From an uncultured Methanosarcinales archaeon (GTDB taxonomy: Archaea > Nanobdellota > Nanobdellia > Woesearchaeales > CAXGTL01), in assembly GCA_964535955.1 (NCBI GenBank), contig CAZHVK010000007.1, positions 4,118-68,117 of the forward strand: a stretch of DNA of 64,000 nucleotides, in the 5' to 3' direction. Positions 3,185 through 61,849 of this stretch are shown in pieces. The translations under genes and the position numbers were made by a program. Position 1 is the first letter of the stretch, and each line of letters begins with the position of its first letter. The notes beneath the pieces are model-generated. The model saw only the letters and a program-made list of their open reading frames with translations, searched no databases and was not told the origin of the DNA.

Positions 3185-3722
3185 GATAGAAGAAAATTAT
3201 AAAGAATTGGTGAAAGTTAAAGCTGTTAAAGAAGATTCTATTATTCAATCTCATCTTAAGTGGCAGAAAGCTGTAAATGATTTGTTACTGGCTGAGAAAT
3301 TACTACAAATTTCTACAAATAAAAAACTAAAAGAGGTATTAAGTCTCGGTGAAGACAATACTTTTTTTGATTGGGTTGTTGTTTGTTCTTATTTTTCTAT
3401 ATTTCATGCAACCCAAGCATTGTTAGGTTTGAAAAAGATCAAAATAATTAATAGATTGCATCATGCTACATTGACATCTTTTGCAAAACATTTTATTATC
3501 AATGATGAGTTAGCAGAAGAATTATTCTTTATTTATGAAGATGCTGAGACAAAAGCAAAAGACTTGTTAGACATACTTGAGGAAGAAAAAGGCAAGAGAG
3601 GATTGTTTCAATATCACAGATTGTCAAGACATAATCTTGATCCTGCAAAAGACTCTGTTGAAAATGCTAAGAAATTCCTCGCCACAGTACAAGAAGTTCT
3701 GAAGAAGAACAAGGTAATATAA
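3168..3722 (+). CDS. HEPN-like partner of the nucleotidyltransferase
   Basis: helical protein, HEPN-like FHATQALLGLKK segment and a C-proximal RGLFQYH (R-x5-H); translationally coupled to the MNT gene. Confidence 0.45.
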   Translation: MLQHNKIEENYKELVKVKAVKEDSIIQSHLKWQKAVNDLLLAEKLLQISTNKKLKEVLSLGEDNTFFDWVVVCSYFSIFHATQALLGLKKIKIINRLHHATLTSFAKHFIINDELAEELFFIYEDAETKAKDLLDILEEEKGKRGLFQYHRLSRHNLDPAKDSVENAKKFLATVQEVLKKNKVI

Positions 3723-3965
3723 TCACATTTTCACCCTTAATTTAAGCCCTGATTTTATCTAAAAAAATAACATATTTGAAAACACAGTAATTAGTATTTC
3801 TCGACTATAAAAATGAAAATAAGGGCTTAATTTTGCCCCTATAATAGAGATTTACCTAGTGGAGAATTAGGGTCTGAAAATGATTTGTGTTCTTGAAAAT
3901 GGCAATATTTATAAACTAAATAAAACACCTTAAATTAAAAAAAGAGTTCTGTTTAGATTAACTGC

Positions 3966-5171
3966 GTGATTGAAATGACAAAGCCTAAAACACTTTTTAT
4001 CCCACATGAACCAATAACATATGAATTAAAGGAGTATATGTTAAATAATGGTTTTGCTGAAAGTATTGAACCTTTTAAGTCAGATAAGTCACTCTACTCA
4101 GTTAGATACCCTTATAAAAAGAAAAACTATAAAGAAGTAATTTTTGGTAAACTATCAAGAGGGAAACATATATTTTTGCTGGGTACTGGATATATGCATG
4201 ATCTCACTTATTTTATATGTAAAGATTTTATCAACAGGCCTTTTACTTTGATTTATCTTGATGCGCATCTTGATGCTAAAGATAATGAAAGAATAGGAAA
4301 AGTAACTGGTGCAACAGTTCAAAAAAGATTTCCAGAGGGTACTGTTTGCTGTGAAAACCCATTATATCAAATACTCAAACATAATCCTAATTTAAGAAGA
4401 GCAATACATATTGGTTGCACAAGTGGAGCAGGAATTGAATATATTCATGATGAATTAGAAAGTCAAAAACTTGTAATGTTTCCTGAACAGGATTTTCATT
4501 ATAAAATCTCACCAGCTGAATATGTTAAAGGAGTGTTATTGAAATCAAGAGAATCATTATTTTCATCTATTTATTTAAAAGATCCAAATGTTTCAGGAGA
4601 AGATATTGGAAAATTAATATGGTATCTTCATAATTTAGGAACAAAAGATGAAAGATACAAAGAAATGTGGAGGAACATAAAAAGTGATGTTATAAATGTT
4701 GACAAAGGATGGGCAGAATTAGAAAGAGAGGACAAAACAAATGAAGTTGCATTAATTGTACGCACTGCAGTTAGTATGCTTGATGGTATGGAAATAGATG
4801 AAAAACAATTAGAACAAATGGTTCGAGAAGGTATGCCAATAAATTTAGAGGTTGCAAAGCAAAATATGACTAACGTCAGAACTGAGTACTTTAGTTATAA
4901 TGATATTATTAATGACCCCCCTTTAATGTTGGATCTAATAGAAGGTGATATTTATATAACTATTGACCTGGATGTTTTAAAAGGTTTTAATTGCCTCAGA
5001 GAATTTAGGCATGGAAAAATGGAATTAGATGAATTAATTCAGATTGTTGGCTTATTTTCTGACAGTAAAATAAGGGATGCTGATATTTGTGGTTTAGGGA
5101 ATTATTTATCAGATGTTAAATCATTTGAAAAAGTAGGGAGAGTTCATAATTCTTTGGAAAAAATAATGTAA
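3966..5171 (+). CDS. divergent arginase/deacetylase-fold (ureohydrolase-like) protein
   Basis: motifs YLDAHLDAKD (DAHxD-like) and ITIDLDVLKG (DxDxxDP-like) in ureohydrolase order; otherwise unrecognizable. Confidence 0.3.
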   Translation: MIEMTKPKTLFIPHEPITYELKEYMLNNGFAESIEPFKSDKSLYSVRYPYKKKNYKEVIFGKLSRGKHIFLLGTGYMHDLTYFICKDFINRPFTLIYLDAHLDAKDNERIGKVTGATVQKRFPEGTVCCENPLYQILKHNPNLRRAIHIGCTSGAGIEYIHDELESQKLVMFPEQDFHYKISPAEYVKGVLLKSRESLFSSIYLKDPNVSGEDIGKLIWYLHNLGTKDERYKEMWRNIKSDVINVDKGWAELEREDKTNEVALIVRTAVSMLDGMEIDEKQLEQMVREGMPINLEVAKQNMTNVRTEYFSYNDIINDPPLMLDLIEGDIYITIDLDVLKGFNCLREFRHGKMELDELIQIVGLFSDSKIRDADICGLGNYLSDVKSFEKVGRVHNSLEKIM

Positions 5172-10861: not shown

Positions 10862-10877
10862 ATTTACATTAAAGGAG

Positions 10878-11112
10878 GTGGTCAATATCCAAATAACAAT
10901 AGATACAGCAAAAGATTCGCCAGAAGACAAACTCACTAACGTTCGTAGCCTTCAGGCTCATGCAAAGGGGTGGTCAATATCCAAATAACAATAGATACAG
11001 CAAAAGATTCGCCAGAAGACAAACTCACTAACGTTCGTAGCCTTCAGGCTCATGCAAAGGGGTGGTCAATATCCAAATAACAATAGATACAGCAAAAGAT
11101 TCGCCAGAAGAC
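10878..11112 (+). repeat. 92-bp tandem duplication (2 full copies plus 50 bp) spanning RBS, GTG start and first 17 codons of the downstream gene
   Basis: identical GTGGTCAATATCCAAATAACAATAGATACAGCAAAAGATTCGCCAGAAGAC at 10878, 10970 and 11062; first two followed by an identical 42-bp GC-richer segment containing the AGCCTTCAGGCT palindrome. Confidence 0.9.
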
Positions 11113-11361
11113 ATAAAAAAAGCAATAGAATTGCTTTCTTCTTTGACTAATTCTAGAGTTAGAAGTAATTCTGATTTATTTACTAATACTGAAACTGAAT
11201 CTTCTAGTTCTTCTTTTTCTAATACTACTTCTAGTTCCACTAACACACAAAGTAATAGTGGAGGGGTATTTAATATGTTTAATAATAATCCTAGTCAAGA
11301 AACAAAATCTCAGGAACAAGATGAACAAGAACCTTCTAAAGTTCAGGTATTAAAATATTAA
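11062..11361 (+). CDS. Ser/Thr/Asn-rich low-complexity protein
   Basis: 99-aa ORF with GTG start preceded by GGAGGT; 5' end is the third copy of the tandem repeat. Confidence 0.35.
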   Translation: MVNIQITIDTAKDSPEDIKKAIELLSSLTNSRVRSNSDLFTNTETESSSSSFSNTTSSSTNTQSNSGGVFNMFNNNPSQETKSQEQDEQEPSKVQVLKY

Positions 11362-38272: not shown

Positions 38273-39418
38273 ATGAATAAAGATTCAGAAAAAAGAAAAA
38301 TATCAAAACCAGCAAAAATAGCTGGAACAGTGCTTGGAATCCTATTAAGTATTGCAGGAATAAAAGCAAATGCTCAACCAATGAATTATGGTAATGACTT
38401 AGACCAAATGAGAGCAGCAGCAGATGCATACTGGGGTGGAAATTCAAGTTCATCTAGAGGATATGGTTATTCAGGTTCAAGAGGAAGAACAGACCAAGAA
38501 GTAAACAGCATGGGTGTTAAATGGGAACATGGCAGTGCTAATTATATACAAACAAATGACAGAAGAGGAATGGTTGGTAGAGAAAAAACAACTTATGGAG
38601 TATCTGGAACAAGAAAAGGAAAACCATGGAGTACCTCTATTACATTCAAAGGAGATCTTAACAAATTATTAGGATTACAAATCATGGATGAATACACATT
38701 AGACCATTTAGATATGGAATTCTGGGAAAAAACATACAGAACAAATTCAAGAGGTGGTTTATTTTGGGATAGAAGATCTTCAGGCGGATGGGAACATCAT
38801 TCACCAAAAGAAAAAGGAAGATTTTATGTTGAAGATCCATTAAGAGCAAGCATTGAATTACAAGAACAAGCAGACAGGATCTATAGACTTGATGATGGTT
38901 CTTTATTAGGAGTTAAATATGCACCTTATGGAACAAAAAAAGCAAGACAAAAAGAACAAGATTTTAATAAAAAAACAGCTAATACAGATCCAAATCAAAA
39001 ATCAAGATTTAGTGATCCAAATAGAAGAGAAAGACTTAGAATAATTCCAGCTGGTGAAGAAGATCATGTTAAATATGATATTGAACACATTCTTATAGAC
39101 GAGACTGCATTAGCAAATGGTAAAGATCTTATGTATTTTGGTGAAGAAGTTGAAGCAGAGCCAGGAACATTTTATTATACTTTTAACCCATCAGCATTAA
39201 TGCAAAGAGCAAGAGCAAAGAGAAAAGAATACAATTCACAGTTTGTTGTAAGTGATATTTTAGAAGAAATAAAAAACAGAAACCCAGAAACAGACTTAGA
39301 TGAAGCAGAAACAGCAGACTTTATAATCAGATACCATGGAATGTTTGAGCCTGGTGTTGGATACAAGATTGCTCTAAACGAACAAAAAGCACAAGAATTA
39401 ATAGCAGAAGAAGAATAA
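38273..39418 (+). CDS. secreted hypothetical protein
   Basis: signal peptide (AGTVLGILLSIAGIKANA); Gly/Ser/Arg-rich region; 381 aa. Confidence 0.45.
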   Translation: MNKDSEKRKISKPAKIAGTVLGILLSIAGIKANAQPMNYGNDLDQMRAAADAYWGGNSSSSRGYGYSGSRGRTDQEVNSMGVKWEHGSANYIQTNDRRGMVGREKTTYGVSGTRKGKPWSTSITFKGDLNKLLGLQIMDEYTLDHLDMEFWEKTYRTNSRGGLFWDRRSSGGWEHHSPKEKGRFYVEDPLRASIELQEQADRIYRLDDGSLLGVKYAPYGTKKARQKEQDFNKKTANTDPNQKSRFSDPNRRERLRIIPAGEEDHVKYDIEHILIDETALANGKDLMYFGEEVEAEPGTFYYTFNPSALMQRARAKRKEYNSQFVVSDILEEIKNRNPETDLDEAETADFIIRYHGMFEPGVGYKIALNEQKAQELIAEEE

Positions 39419-39585
39419 GAGTAATTCTTTTTTTATTATTTTTTATTATTTATGATTTTTTTATCTTTAATTATTAATTTTATATTCTATGTTTTTCATA
39501 TTCCACATTTTTCCTAATTTTACTTGATTTCCACCTCTCTAAAACAGATAAGTTTAAAAACAATTTCTTATTTATTATTCTATAT

Positions 39586-39735
39586 CCCTACCTAGCTCAA
39601 TTGGTCAGAGCGCACGGCTGTTTTCCTTATACAGGAAGGCTAAAGATGTGTTCGCTATTTGACTGGGTGCATACCTTGGATGAAAAATAGTCAGCCGGTA
39701 CCGTGAGGTTCCTGGTTCGAGTCCGGGGGTGGGGA
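39586..39735 (+). tRNA. intron-containing tRNA, probably tRNA-Asn(GUU), ~76-nt intron in the anticodon loop
   Basis: acceptor CCCTACC/GGTGGGG, D-arm GCTC..GAGC, anticodon stem CACGG/CCGTG interrupted 39624-39699, T-arm CCTGG TTCGAGT CCGGG. Confidence 0.5.
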
Positions 39736-39737
39736 TT

Positions 39738-39767
39738 AGCCAGGCTAAGTCCTGGCTTTATTCTTTT
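39738..39767 (+). terminator. hairpin AGCCAGG-CTAAGT-CCTGGCT followed by T-rich tract after the tRNA
   Basis: 7-bp stem plus TTATTCTTTT. Confidence 0.4.
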
Positions 39768-39821
39768 AATAGTTAATTTTATTAACCTGTTGTTTTTTAT
39801 CCCCTCTAAAAGAGGTTTTGT

Positions 39822-40582
39822 ATGAGAATAAAAAAACTTAAACAAGGTTACAAAAAGTTAACAAAAGAAAAAGTTAGAATAATAGCTCATTTAATTGGTG
39901 ATGGATATATAGGTATAAGTAAACATGATTATAATATTAAATATGAAGTTTCTGATGAAGAATCATTAAACTCCTTTAAAAGTGATTTAGTTGAAGTATA
40001 TGGTCTTAAACCTACAATTGGAACAAATCCCTCTGGCAAAACAGGCAAACCAATTCCTTTTATTAGATTAAGGTCAAAATTAGCTTATGAGGATTTGTCA
40101 AGAACCACCGGTCAATAGACCGGTGGCATGAAGCGAAAGCTTCATAACAGCCTATAATGACCAGTGGTTCTTGATCATGCTCAGTATTCCACCAGTCAAT
40201 AGACTGGTGGTATACTGACATATTAAAATATGCAACATATTATTCTAAAGATTGGAAGATTCATAAATCATTGCTCTTAGCTTCTGCTGATATTAAAATA
40301 GAATTTCTTAAAGCATTATTTGATGATGAAGGAAGTGTTATTCCTACTGGTAAGAATGGCATTATTAGATTATATTCTATAAATTTAGAAGGACTAAAAC
40401 AAATCCAAACCATTTTAATAGACTTTAAAATAGAATCTAAAATTGTGAAGGGCTTTGGTTGCAGAAGAAATGTTTATGCTTTAGTAATTAAAAACCTAAA
40501 ATTATTTAGAGAGAGGATAGGTTTCAATTTAAAAAGAAAACAAAAAAAATTGAATGATCTAATTATAAATCAATTAAAATGA
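39822..40582 (+). pseudogene. LAGLIDADG homing endonuclease split in two by a ~110-bp palindromic insert
   Basis: first half carries LIGDGYIG (LAGLIDADG motif 1), second half FLKALFDDEGSV (motif 2); halves in frames 0 and 2, insert length congruent 2 mod 3; stop codon lies inside the insert. Confidence 0.65.
40098..40213. repeat. hairpin-rich MITE-like insert: CCACCGGTC-AATA-GACCGGTGG, GNRA hairpin ATGAAGC-GAAA-GCTTCAT, inverted copy of left arm, CCACCAGTC-AATA-GACTGGTGG
   Basis: three perfect hairpins, long inverted repeat TCAAGAACCACCGGTC / GACCAGTGGTTCTTGA. Confidence 0.7.
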
Positions 40583-40608
40583 TTAATATCAAGGGGGGAT
40601 GCTTTTTA

Positions 40609-41232
40609 TTATTCTTTTAACAAACCATGCTCTTTACCATCAATAACAACAGAATAAAACTTAAACACTTCATCATCAAACTCTCCTTTTAATGTGATTG
40701 CATTTTTATTACCATCCCATCTTCTTTTTTGTAATAATTCAGCAACATATTTTTCTTTATCAACATCAAGAGGACGCGCAGCTCTTATTCTAAAAAGAGA
40801 ACCATCAATGCAGTATGATCTTGCTTTTAAAACATCTTCATCACAGCCTCTAAAAGTGATTTCAAATACACCATCAAATCTGCGAATTTCTTTTTCACGA
40901 TAATTGTCACTAATACCATGGTATGAAAGTTTTTTAATTTTACTAAAATCAATCATATAAGGAACAACACTTATTTCAGCAAACTCTCCATCATGTTCAT
41001 CTACAACTTGTTCTAATCTGCCTTGTTCAACAGCTTGTGCAATATTAATACTAGCTTTAATTTCAGGCATTTCAATAGGATCTCTCATAGCTAAACATGT
41101 CATATAAGTTAACCAAGAAAAAGTCAATAATGTAAGACCCATAAACTTATACCTATCCATAACAGTCATATGCTTTAACATAATACATAAAGAGAACCAC
41201 AACCAGTATAAAAATCTTTCTATTTTCACCAC
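40609..41232 (-). CDS. membrane protein (2 N-terminal TM) with soluble C-terminal domain
   Basis: 207-aa ORF; hydrophobic N-terminal 60 aa. Confidence 0.4.
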   Translation of the reverse strand: MVKIERFLYWLWFSLCIMLKHMTVMDRYKFMGLTLLTFSWLTYMTCLAMRDPIEMPEIKASINIAQAVEQGRLEQVVDEHDGEFAEISVVPYMIDFSKIKKLSYHGISDNYREKEIRRFDGVFEITFRGCDEDVLKARSYCIDGSLFRIRAARPLDVDKEKYVAELLQKRRWDGNKNAITLKGEFDDEVFKFYSVVIDGKEHGLLKE

Positions 41233-41408: not shown

Positions 41409-41554
41409 CCTTGGTGGTGTAGTTGGTCTATCATGGGGCCCTGTCGAAGCTTTATAAAGCAAAAACAGTTTTAAATAGACTGTTTTAGCTCATTGCGGAT
41501 AGGCCCCGACTCGGGTTCAAATTCATTTTATGATGAAAGTCCCGGCCAGGGCGT
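41409..41554 (+). tRNA. tRNA-Asp(GUC) with two introns (54 nt in anticodon loop, ~18 nt in T-loop region)
   Basis: acceptor GCCTTGG/CCAGGGC, D-arm GTG-TAGTTGGTCTAT-CAT (Glu/Asp-type), anticodon stem GGGCC/GGCCC with loop CTGTCG-A, BHB-compatible pairing CTGT/GCGG; T-arm TCGGG TTCAAAT [insert] CCCGG. Confidence 0.6.
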
Positions 41555-41646
41555 TAAATAACAAAAAATCAAGGCTGATAAGACATTTCAGCCTAATAAT
41601 AGGGCAGTGGTGGCTAAGATTTCATAAACCTCACTAGCCCTACAAT

Positions 41647-41757
41647 GGGCTGGTGGCTCAGTCTGGATTTATACAGATATGAAGGACAATAGAGCACTCC
41701 ACTTTTAATGGAGTGGTCGCGGGTTCGAAAACAACATCGAAAATCCCGTCCGGCCCA
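41647..41757 (+). tRNA. tRNA-Lys(UUU) with two non-canonical introns (24 nt in D-loop, ~14 nt in T-loop region)
   Basis: acceptor GGGCTGG/CCGGCCC, D-stem GCTC/GAGC separated by 32 nt, anticodon arm CTCCA CTTTTAA TGGAG, T-arm GCGGG TTCGAAA [ACAACATCGAAAAT] CCCGT. Confidence 0.6.
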
Positions 41758-41787
41758 CTTATATTTAATAAAAGGTAAAAATTCAAT

Positions 41788-60596: not shown

Positions 60597-60629
60597 TTAG
60601 ATAAATATAAATGCCACAAAATCATTGCA

Positions 60630-60719
60630 TGGGTCTGGCCGGACTCGAACCGGCGATTAACGCCTATCTTTTCCTAATGGAATGTAAGGGCGCTGTCATA
60701 GCCACTAGACCACAAACCC
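60630..60719 (-). tRNA. tRNA-Val(UAC) with ~17-nt anticodon-loop intron
   Basis: reverse complement: GGGTTTG TG GTC-TAGTGGCTAT-GAC A GCGCC CTTACA[intron]A GGCGT TAAT GCCGG TTCGAGT CCGGC CAGACCC A. Confidence 0.7.
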
Positions 60720-60778
60720 AATTATATATAGAAAACAAACCACATATATAAAAAGGTTACTGTAAAAAGCTTTATATA

Positions 60779-61715: not shown

Positions 61716-61849
61716 GGGCCTGTAGCTTAGTCTGGTGGAGCGCCGGTCTTATATGGCAGTGTTCCCAACAACTGGCTTAAGTTAGCCGGTGGTCGTGCGA
61801 GGATAACATTATCAGTGTTGTTCCACGAATTCAAATCGCGCCAGGCCCA
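61716..61849 (+). tRNA. tRNA-Ile(UAU) candidate with two 30-nt introns (anticodon loop 37/38 and T-arm)
   Basis: acceptor GGGCCTG/CAGGCCC, D-arm GCTT..GAGC, anticodon stem CCGGT/GCCGG, loop CTTATA|intron|A with BHB pairing CTTA/TAAG; T-stem GTGCG [30-nt insert] TTCAAAT CGCGC. Confidence 0.5.

Follow-up and report, generated by a model that had tools for sequence, protein, structure and literature searches.

The locus at 39,822 to 40,582 of the window, as the whole 64-kb stretch of DNA analysed here is called, raises the question of what splits an otherwise conserved LAGLIDADG gene: a piece of mobile DNA, a structured RNA, or an intron-like sequence removed from the transcript. The window is archaeal and DPANN-like, with a split rpoB followed by rpoA and with intron-rich tRNA genes, and its closest protein relatives carry the source label Woesearchaeota or Nanoarchaeota. 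Introns are long or multiple in several tRNA genes, and some of them seem to lie in the T-loop region (61716-61849, 60629-60720 on the minus strand, 41410-41560 and 41640-41765). A search for BHB motifs finds two in the gene at 61716-61849 and two in the tRNA-Glu gene at 60629-60720, and these paired motifs therefore imply a splicing endonuclease of broad specificity. A tandem repeat at 10871-11113 consists of 2.6 copies of a 92-nt unit at 99% identity, with a period that is not a multiple of three.

The interrupted gene and the ends of the insert

A single LAGLIDADG protein is encoded in two pieces, by the open reading frames 39822-40118 (98 aa) and 40271-40582 (103 aa, Pfam LAGLIDADG_3). The 5′ frame reads into the insert and ends at a TAG (40116-40118) in the loop of the first core palindrome, the effect of the insert being a stop after 98 codons and a frame shift of +2. 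A search with the joined protein retrieves 133 relatives, most of them uninterrupted and 200-215 aa long, at identities of up to 69%. All 16 homologues that were aligned (55-69% identity) read ...AYEDL/LKYATY... across the junction, with a 27-column gap exactly opposite the extra sequence of the window. Excision of 125 nt restores the frame and yields ...AYEDL-LKYATY... with no gap against these homologues, the 3′ part being intact. The gene is a conserved one of about 206 aa, and the insertion lies in the linker between its two domains (Table 1).

The feature that the preliminary description placed at 40098-40213 is real, but the true insert has 125 nt (40097-40221) rather than 116 nt. Excising the shorter span would leave three extra residues, and its 3′ boundary falls 8-9 nt short, the third hairpin being the core of a longer stem-loop of 45 nt. 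The boundaries are uncertain by 1-2 nt, excision of 40098-40222 being equivalent to that of 40097-40221. There is no target duplication: the protein aligns without gaps once exactly these 125 nt are taken out, and the insert has no flanking direct repeat.

The same split into 98 aa and 103 aa occurs in all six assemblies of the population, on six contigs from at least five samples that are identical to the window over 3 kb, which rules out an assembly artefact or a rare variant. No empty-site allele was found among the six assemblies, and no intact allele in the protein database exceeds 69% identity; the predicted empty site is GAGGATTTATTAAAATATGC (or ...GATTTGTTAAAA...). The putative mobility of the window copy rests on the comparison with homologues. 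Neither half of the gene shows further decay, which fits a recent insertion and equally a tolerated one.

The LAGLIDADG_3 gene has a recurrent neighbour. In all three genomes examined, it lies ~85-100 nt downstream of a tRNA gene with an intron of ~85 nt (tRNA and LAGLIDADG gene at 39586-39736 and 39822-40582 in the window, at 3766-3918 and 4001-4624 in locus L128, and at 3756-3905 and 4001-4624 in locus L130). It is 55-69% identical across Woesearchaeota and Nanoarchaeota MAGs, and the tRNAs beside it are missed by ARAGORN and by Rfam at the gathering threshold. The position beside a tRNA suggests a domesticated or tRNA-linked gene and not a free homing endonuclease.

Table 1. Features of the interrupted gene and its insert, in window coordinates.
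Feature	Position	Strand	Sequence or basis
5′ part of the LAGLIDADG_3 gene, first LAGLIDADG domain	39822-40096	+	
Whole element, non-autonomous, IS200/IS605 type (PATE, probable), 125 nt	40097-40221	-	LAGLIDADG alignment; block conserved among copies
RE module	40097-40175	-	Fold; repeats I2 and I5
Core palindrome 1, G-C variant	40105-40126		CCACCGGTC-AATA-GACCGGTGG
Small inner hairpin	40128-40145		ATGAAGC-GAAA-GCTTCAT; GNRA loop
LE module, 45-nt stem-loop	40177-40221	-	MFE and centroid folds; inverted repeat I3
Core palindrome 2, A-T variant	40189-40210		CCACCAGTC-AATA-GACTGGTGG
Target or transposon-adjacent motif TTAAT (ATTAA on plus)	40222-40226	-	Conserved flank in copies
3′ part of the LAGLIDADG_3 gene, second domain	40222-40582	+	PF14528, E = 2e-9

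Hairpins, modules and target motif

The three perfect hairpins reported earlier are all present in the sequence given for them (Table 1). The two outer ones are 22-mers that differ at two positions and share the same orientation; with up to three mismatches allowed, these are the only two sites in the 64 kb, against 0 expected from 100 shuffles. The reported 16-nt inverted copy of the left arm exists as well, although it is imperfect: TCAAGAACCACCGGTC (40098-40113) faces GACCAGTGGTTCTTGA (40159-40174) with one mismatch (C40109/A40163), and a repeat search extends this inverted repeat (I2) to 20 nt at 90%. The impression of a GC-rich, highly structured insert is borne out. Its GC content is 45.6%, that of the window 30.1% and that of the gene halves on either side 24-27%, and positions 40070-40240, folded as RNA, reach -69.8 kcal/mol vs. 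-34.9 ± 4.3 kcal/mol for shuffled sequences (z = -8.2), none of the 200 shuffles folding as stably. The single-strand fold of the element comprises two long stem-loops, 40097-40175 and 40177-40221. The GAAA (GNRA) loop of the small inner hairpin is not conserved in the family, other subfamilies having different small hairpins at the same position.

The two stem-loops correspond to the RE and LE modules. The outer stem of RE, P1 (40098-40108 / 40164-40174), holds the first palindrome, a conserved CATG (40127-40130) and the small hairpin, and the module terminates in TTGAC on the minus strand (40101 to 40097). In LE, the outer stem ATG.CTCAGTAT / ATACTGA.CAT encloses the second palindrome. The top strand of the element, that is, the tnpA-sense strand of its autonomous relatives, probably corresponds to the minus strand of the window; this orientation is taken from the presence of tnpA in three related loci (L003, L045 and L097, described below). 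Read on that strand, with slashes at the element ends, the order is TTAAT / ATGTCAGTATA-palindrome ... palindrome-TTCTTGAC /. The 22-mers lie 8 and 11 nt from the ends in direct orientation, the tips share only a 4-nt GTCA/TGAC symmetry, and there is no real terminal inverted repeat at the window element. With 125 nt the element is too short for a transposase gene, and copies in the family have 82-300 nt and no ORF.

An alignment of five copies, four of them at other sites (L007, L044, L055 and L064), delimits a conserved block equivalent to window positions 40096-40226. The flank on the LE side is conserved in 23 copies at different sites: position +2 is T in all 23, +1 is A or T, and +6 is A in 18, which gives the plus-strand consensus W-T-K-W-W-A, a TTAAT-like motif on the top strand of the element. 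The opposite flank, on the RE side, is unspecific in these 23 copies except for a preference for T/A at -1. The LE-side motif, conserved in the alignment of element copies, encodes conserved host residues in the window. Because positions 40222-40226 are host coding sequence (codons TTA AAA, Leu-Lys), the motif is the target and not part of the element.

Related copies and transposase-bearing relatives

A scan with the 22-nt pattern CCACCRGTCAATAGACYGGTGG against one genome per prokaryotic species finds it in more than 117 stretches elsewhere, and the element is thus neither unique nor unconserved. Among the 117 matches listed, 114 are archaeal and come from about 40 assemblies, mostly DPANN, with labels that include Woesearchaeota, Nanoarchaeota, Pacearchaeota, Aenigmatarchaeota, Altiarchaeota, Thermoplasmata and "Methanosarcinales"; at least 25 of the loci listed belong to a single Woesearchaeota assembly, JACPNA01. 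The three bacterial matches lack the surrounding architecture. The archaeal ones share a single two-hairpin, non-coding architecture of 80-300 nt. In the orientation of the window it starts with GTCAA, a stem strand that varies between subfamilies, the 22-mer, CATG and a small hairpin, and continues with the complementary stem strand ending in TTGA, a short GAGCATGCTCAG-like linker and a second stem-loop, often around a second 22-mer. An A/T-rich flank follows (for instance ATTAA, TTGAA or ATTTTA). Related copies occupy different sites in different genomes: those in two other Woesearchaeota (L007 and L044) are 88% identical over the whole element and lie at unrelated sites. A metagenome scan for the subfamily of the window gives four matches, two of them at the L007 and L044 sites, and a search of viral contigs for the element gives none.

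Relatives that lack the 22-nt palindrome (ATGTCAGAAATC...GATTTCTGAGCATGATCAAAAACAC...GTGTTTTTGACA) lie just upstream of the tRNA-LAGLIDADG pair in L128 (3596-3658) and L130 (3630-3720), which means that the palindrome scan underestimates the size of the family. Small insertions are nested in the palindromes or inner hairpins of family members in L013, L076, L105, L111 and L034, in L045 (6303-6343) and, on the reverse complement, in L003 (~150-105) and L097 (~1020-985). Examples are TATAGCGAAC...GTGAGCGGT in the palindrome loop and CACAAGAAAT... hairpin units after GGTGG, and they recall small mobile repeats that have been reported to target PATE palindromes in Haloquadratum. The "uncultured Methanosarcinales" MAG CAYHXT01 encodes a class II aminoacyl-tRNA synthetase (L013, 1551-2849) that is 76% identical to that of the Woesearchaeota MAG JACPCC01 (L084, 1202-2551), and its label is probably wrong on this sequence comparison. 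Since MAG labels are unreliable, spread into the Methanosarcinales is not claimed, and the claim is limited to DPANN and Thermoplasmata-labelled MAGs.

When all ORFs of the 117 loci listed are clustered by BLAST, tnpA is the sole recurrent transposon gene beside the palindrome. L003, L045 and L097 have an ORF of ~160 aa near it, which matches Y1_Tnp (PF01797, IS200-like transposase) at E = 1e-26 in L003 and at E = 4e-22 in L045; the ORF of L097, which has the same ends, is assigned by BLAST clustering with these two and not by Pfam. The autonomous tnpA copies contain HUH and Tyr motifs. In tnpA sense, the left end of all three consists of the target motif (TTTAA in L003), ~10 nt and the palindrome, followed by tnpA; beside its target, the LE module of L003 reads TTTAA/AGAGAGAATT-CCACCAGTCTATTGACTGGTGG. 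After the stop codon of tnpA, the right end brings the P1 stem, the small hairpin, CATG, the palindrome and P1′, and ends in ...TTGACA. As far as sequence comparison goes, the window element is the LE and RE modules of such an IS200-type (tnpA-only) element, fused. The 64-kb window itself has no tnpA (tblastn with the three TnpA proteins).

The consensus of the core palindrome is CCACCRGTC-AATA-GACYGGTGG, and the scan pattern leaves one base free in each arm (R and Y). In 120 occurrences among the matches listed, this position is A-T in 70, G-C in 42, A.C in 4 and G.T in 4. Watson-Crick pairs make up 112 of the 120, vs. ~63 expected from the marginal base frequencies, the copies being related by descent and not independent events. 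Other compensatory variants are CCACTGGTC/GACCAGTGG in L044 and CCACCCGTC/GACGGGTGG in L127, and the sequences of the P1 stem differ completely between subfamilies but are still complementary. The hairpin structure is, to judge by these patterns, under selection.

The distribution of copies relative to genes was assessed by excising each complete copy in silico and asking for a healed ORF with at least 50 codons on each side. By this test, 3 of the 36 complete copies are located in an ORF when the exact ends are used, and 7 when any of seven end offsets is accepted, vs. 58% of random positions in the same loci. Because complete copies are so strongly depleted in ORFs, and because at least one in-gene copy is antisense, the family is read as selfish DNA, disfavored by selection within genes, and not as intron-like. 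The antisense copy (L017, minus strand, 3627-3769) lies within a RelE-like toxin gene, and its excision heals the frame to ...LSKRIY-TKKTVSAKENPFHFFERLEGRGDYKLRVGDYRVI.... Given this behavior of the family, the window copy is best read as a disruption that most likely inactivates the LAGLIDADG gene.

Identity of the element and competing explanations

PATEs have been defined by the absence of terminal inverted repeats (TIRs), near-terminal palindromes, the absence of a target duplication and a length that leaves no room for a gene (PMC3119063), and corresponding criteria have been given for IS200/IS605 elements with their PATEs (PMC10055086). The window element has no target duplication, no real TIR, a target motif on one side only, too little length to code and near-terminal palindromes, and for these reasons we assign it, with a probability of about 0.9, to the PATEs as a 125-nt non-autonomous derivative of the IS200/IS605 type. 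The term "MITE-like" in the preliminary description was apt for a mobile insert that is short and non-coding and recurs in multiple copies at many unrelated sites and in many genomes; it does not extend to a classical MITE with TIRs and a target-site duplication. The family to which the element belongs seems to be undescribed.

Described PATEs comprise those of haloarchaea, such as HqIRS46 of Haloquadratum walsbyi (PMC3119063), and PATE-like elements of Geobacillus stearothermophilus (PMC10055086). Like the window element, they are non-coding, measure ~50-300 nt and carry near-identical palindromes near both termini in direct orientation, HqIRS46 with an exact 22-bp duplication and the window element with a 22-mer that differs at two positions. 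They also share the absence of TIRs and of a target duplication, a short conserved target oligonucleotide at one end, ends in common with transposons of the IS605 type, and palindromes that often contain nested insertions. Compared by described features, the window family differs from the published PATEs in its palindrome sequence and in its host group (DPANN-type, 30% GC). The autonomous partners found for it are IS200-type (tnpA only) instead of IS1341/tnpB-type, and its RE forms a three-way junction (P1, palindrome, CATG and small hairpin).

With IS608 and ISDra2 the family shares subterminal LE and RE hairpins, insertion 3′ of a target of 4-5 nt without duplication and, in its autonomous copies, a Y1_Tnp gene with HUH and Tyr motifs, whereas the window element has no genes. 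The targets are TTAC and TTGAT in IS608 and ISDra2, respectively, and TTAAT-like here, and the right-end motif is TCAA in IS608 vs. TTGAC here. The palindromes of the window are perfect, in contrast to the IS608 hairpins with their asymmetric bulge, and its extended stems reach the very ends of the element, unlike those of IS608 and ISDra2. Inspection for a guide/cleavage-site pairing of the IS608 kind, in which bases 5′ of the hairpin foot would pair with the target motif, gives no convincing rule across subfamilies. REP/BIME sequences and their RAYT proteins in bacteria (PMC2817692) likewise combine GC-rich, mostly intergenic palindromes with a Y1 HUH transposase. REPs are single palindromes of 20-40 nt, often in alternating orientation, around a single domesticated RAYT gene (PMC2817692). 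Membership in that group was rejected, as the units here have two distinct ends, LE and RE, plus a target motif, and these same ends enclose the tnpA copies as in IS200. Rejected too were the IS605 elements and PATEs that bear omega RNAs (TnpB/IscB), since the 117 loci listed show no association with tnpB or iscB, L045 and L003 having tnpA only.

IS200/IS605 elements move by a single-strand "peel and paste" mechanism that uses a transposon-adjacent motif (PMC10055086). By analogy with IS608 and ISDra2, a Y1 HUH transposase TnpA encoded elsewhere in the genome would recognise the hairpins of the window element on single-stranded DNA and cut at their feet, after TTAAT and after TTGAC. The element would then be excised as a single-stranded circle and re-inserted immediately 3′ of a short A/T-rich target (TTAAT here, on the minus strand) with no target duplication. 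It would be moved in trans, presumably as single-stranded DNA. If TnpA excision is seamless, as the analogy predicts, it could restore the LAGLIDADG gene.

A classical MITE, mobilised by a DDE transposase and equipped with terminal inverted repeats and a target-site duplication, would match the loosely inverted ends (GTCA...TGAC), and the copy in L007 can indeed be read as TA/ATATGTCA...TGACATAT/TA. The apparent inversion is explained, however, by the palindrome itself, which recurs in direct orientation and forms the hairpin at each end. Neither the window copy nor that in L044 is flanked by a direct repeat, no extra bases are left when the 125 nt are taken out, and Y1 TnpA is the only transposase gene that recurrently adjoins the palindrome among the 117 loci listed; an origin of this kind is already largely refuted and must be considered exceedingly improbable. 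The gene itself invites another explanation, namely that an intron-like element, for example a mobile archaeal BHB intron cut by the tRNA-splicing endonuclease, is removed at the RNA level and leaves the LAGLIDADG gene functional. The host is rich in tRNA introns, including ones at non-canonical positions and several in one tRNA; the gene is conserved, regains its frame on removal and has two intact halves, and the insertion is fixed across the six assemblies. With splice sites placed at the ORF-restoring junctions and the motif defined by two 3-nt bulges with a 4-bp helix between them, a strict search recovers the motifs in tRNA genes of the window, which serve as a positive control, but finds none at 40096-40099 / 40222-40224, even when relaxed. 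Moreover, family copies are strongly depleted in ORFs, the L017 copy is antisense to the gene that it breaks, and the same ends flank tnpA genes, all of which leaves a BHB intron the slenderest of chances. Translational bypass was discarded by sequence inspection: the sequence offers no take-off codon with a landing codon to match, and no stop immediately follows a take-off site.

A functional small RNA or regulatory hairpin cluster (an omega-RNA-like guide, a terminator or an sRNA), with selection acting on RNA and not on DNA, would accord with the very stable predicted fold and with the conserved three-way junction of RE, which is more elaborate than a simple TnpA hairpin and has covarying P1 stems; bacterial PATEs, in addition, often carry omega RNAs (PMC10055086). 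Covariation, though, is equally expected for single-stranded DNA hairpins. Across the window only tRNAs pass the gathering score of Rfam 15, and the best match in 39300-40700, to the RsaJ terminator hairpin, reaches 25.3 bits, the gathering score being 100. In the autonomous relatives found, tnpA is the only gene encoded, and no ORF of tnpB or iscB size recurs beside the palindrome in the 117 loci listed. The suggestion of a compact structured RNA, which finds only sub-threshold chance matches in Rfam while the same hairpins flank tnpA genes, is accordingly very unlikely. A related question is whether the in-gene copy does more than knock out its host gene, in that the RE junction is transcribed and works as a guide, antisense or regulatory RNA, the 125 nt drop out or are bypassed at the level of RNA, or insertion into the linker has produced a tolerated two-piece gene. 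We consider this quite unlikely; if true, any of the three options would explain why the insertion is fixed and its halves undecayed in every assembly of the population.

As a PATE, the element represents mobile DNA of an ordinary kind. No other IS family is as widespread in archaea as IS200/IS605 (PMC13343696), and one more hairpin element derived from IS200/IS605 is in itself of small importance. The IS200-type PATE family is common in DPANN-type archaea, and its main value may lie in annotation. The family, marked by CCACCRGTCAATAGACYGGTGG, is abundant in MAGs of the Woesearchaeota, Nanoarchaeota, Aenigmatarchaeota and Altiarchaeota type, and where a copy splits a gene, pipelines call two ORFs, here of 98 aa and 103 aa, only the second of which is recognised on its own as LAGLIDADG. 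The family also documents active-looking mobile DNA with a Y1 transposase in the very small genomes of DPANN archaea. Its near-identical palindromes may be useful as markers to trace how these lineages exchange DNA, provided that the taxonomy labels of the MAGs are checked.
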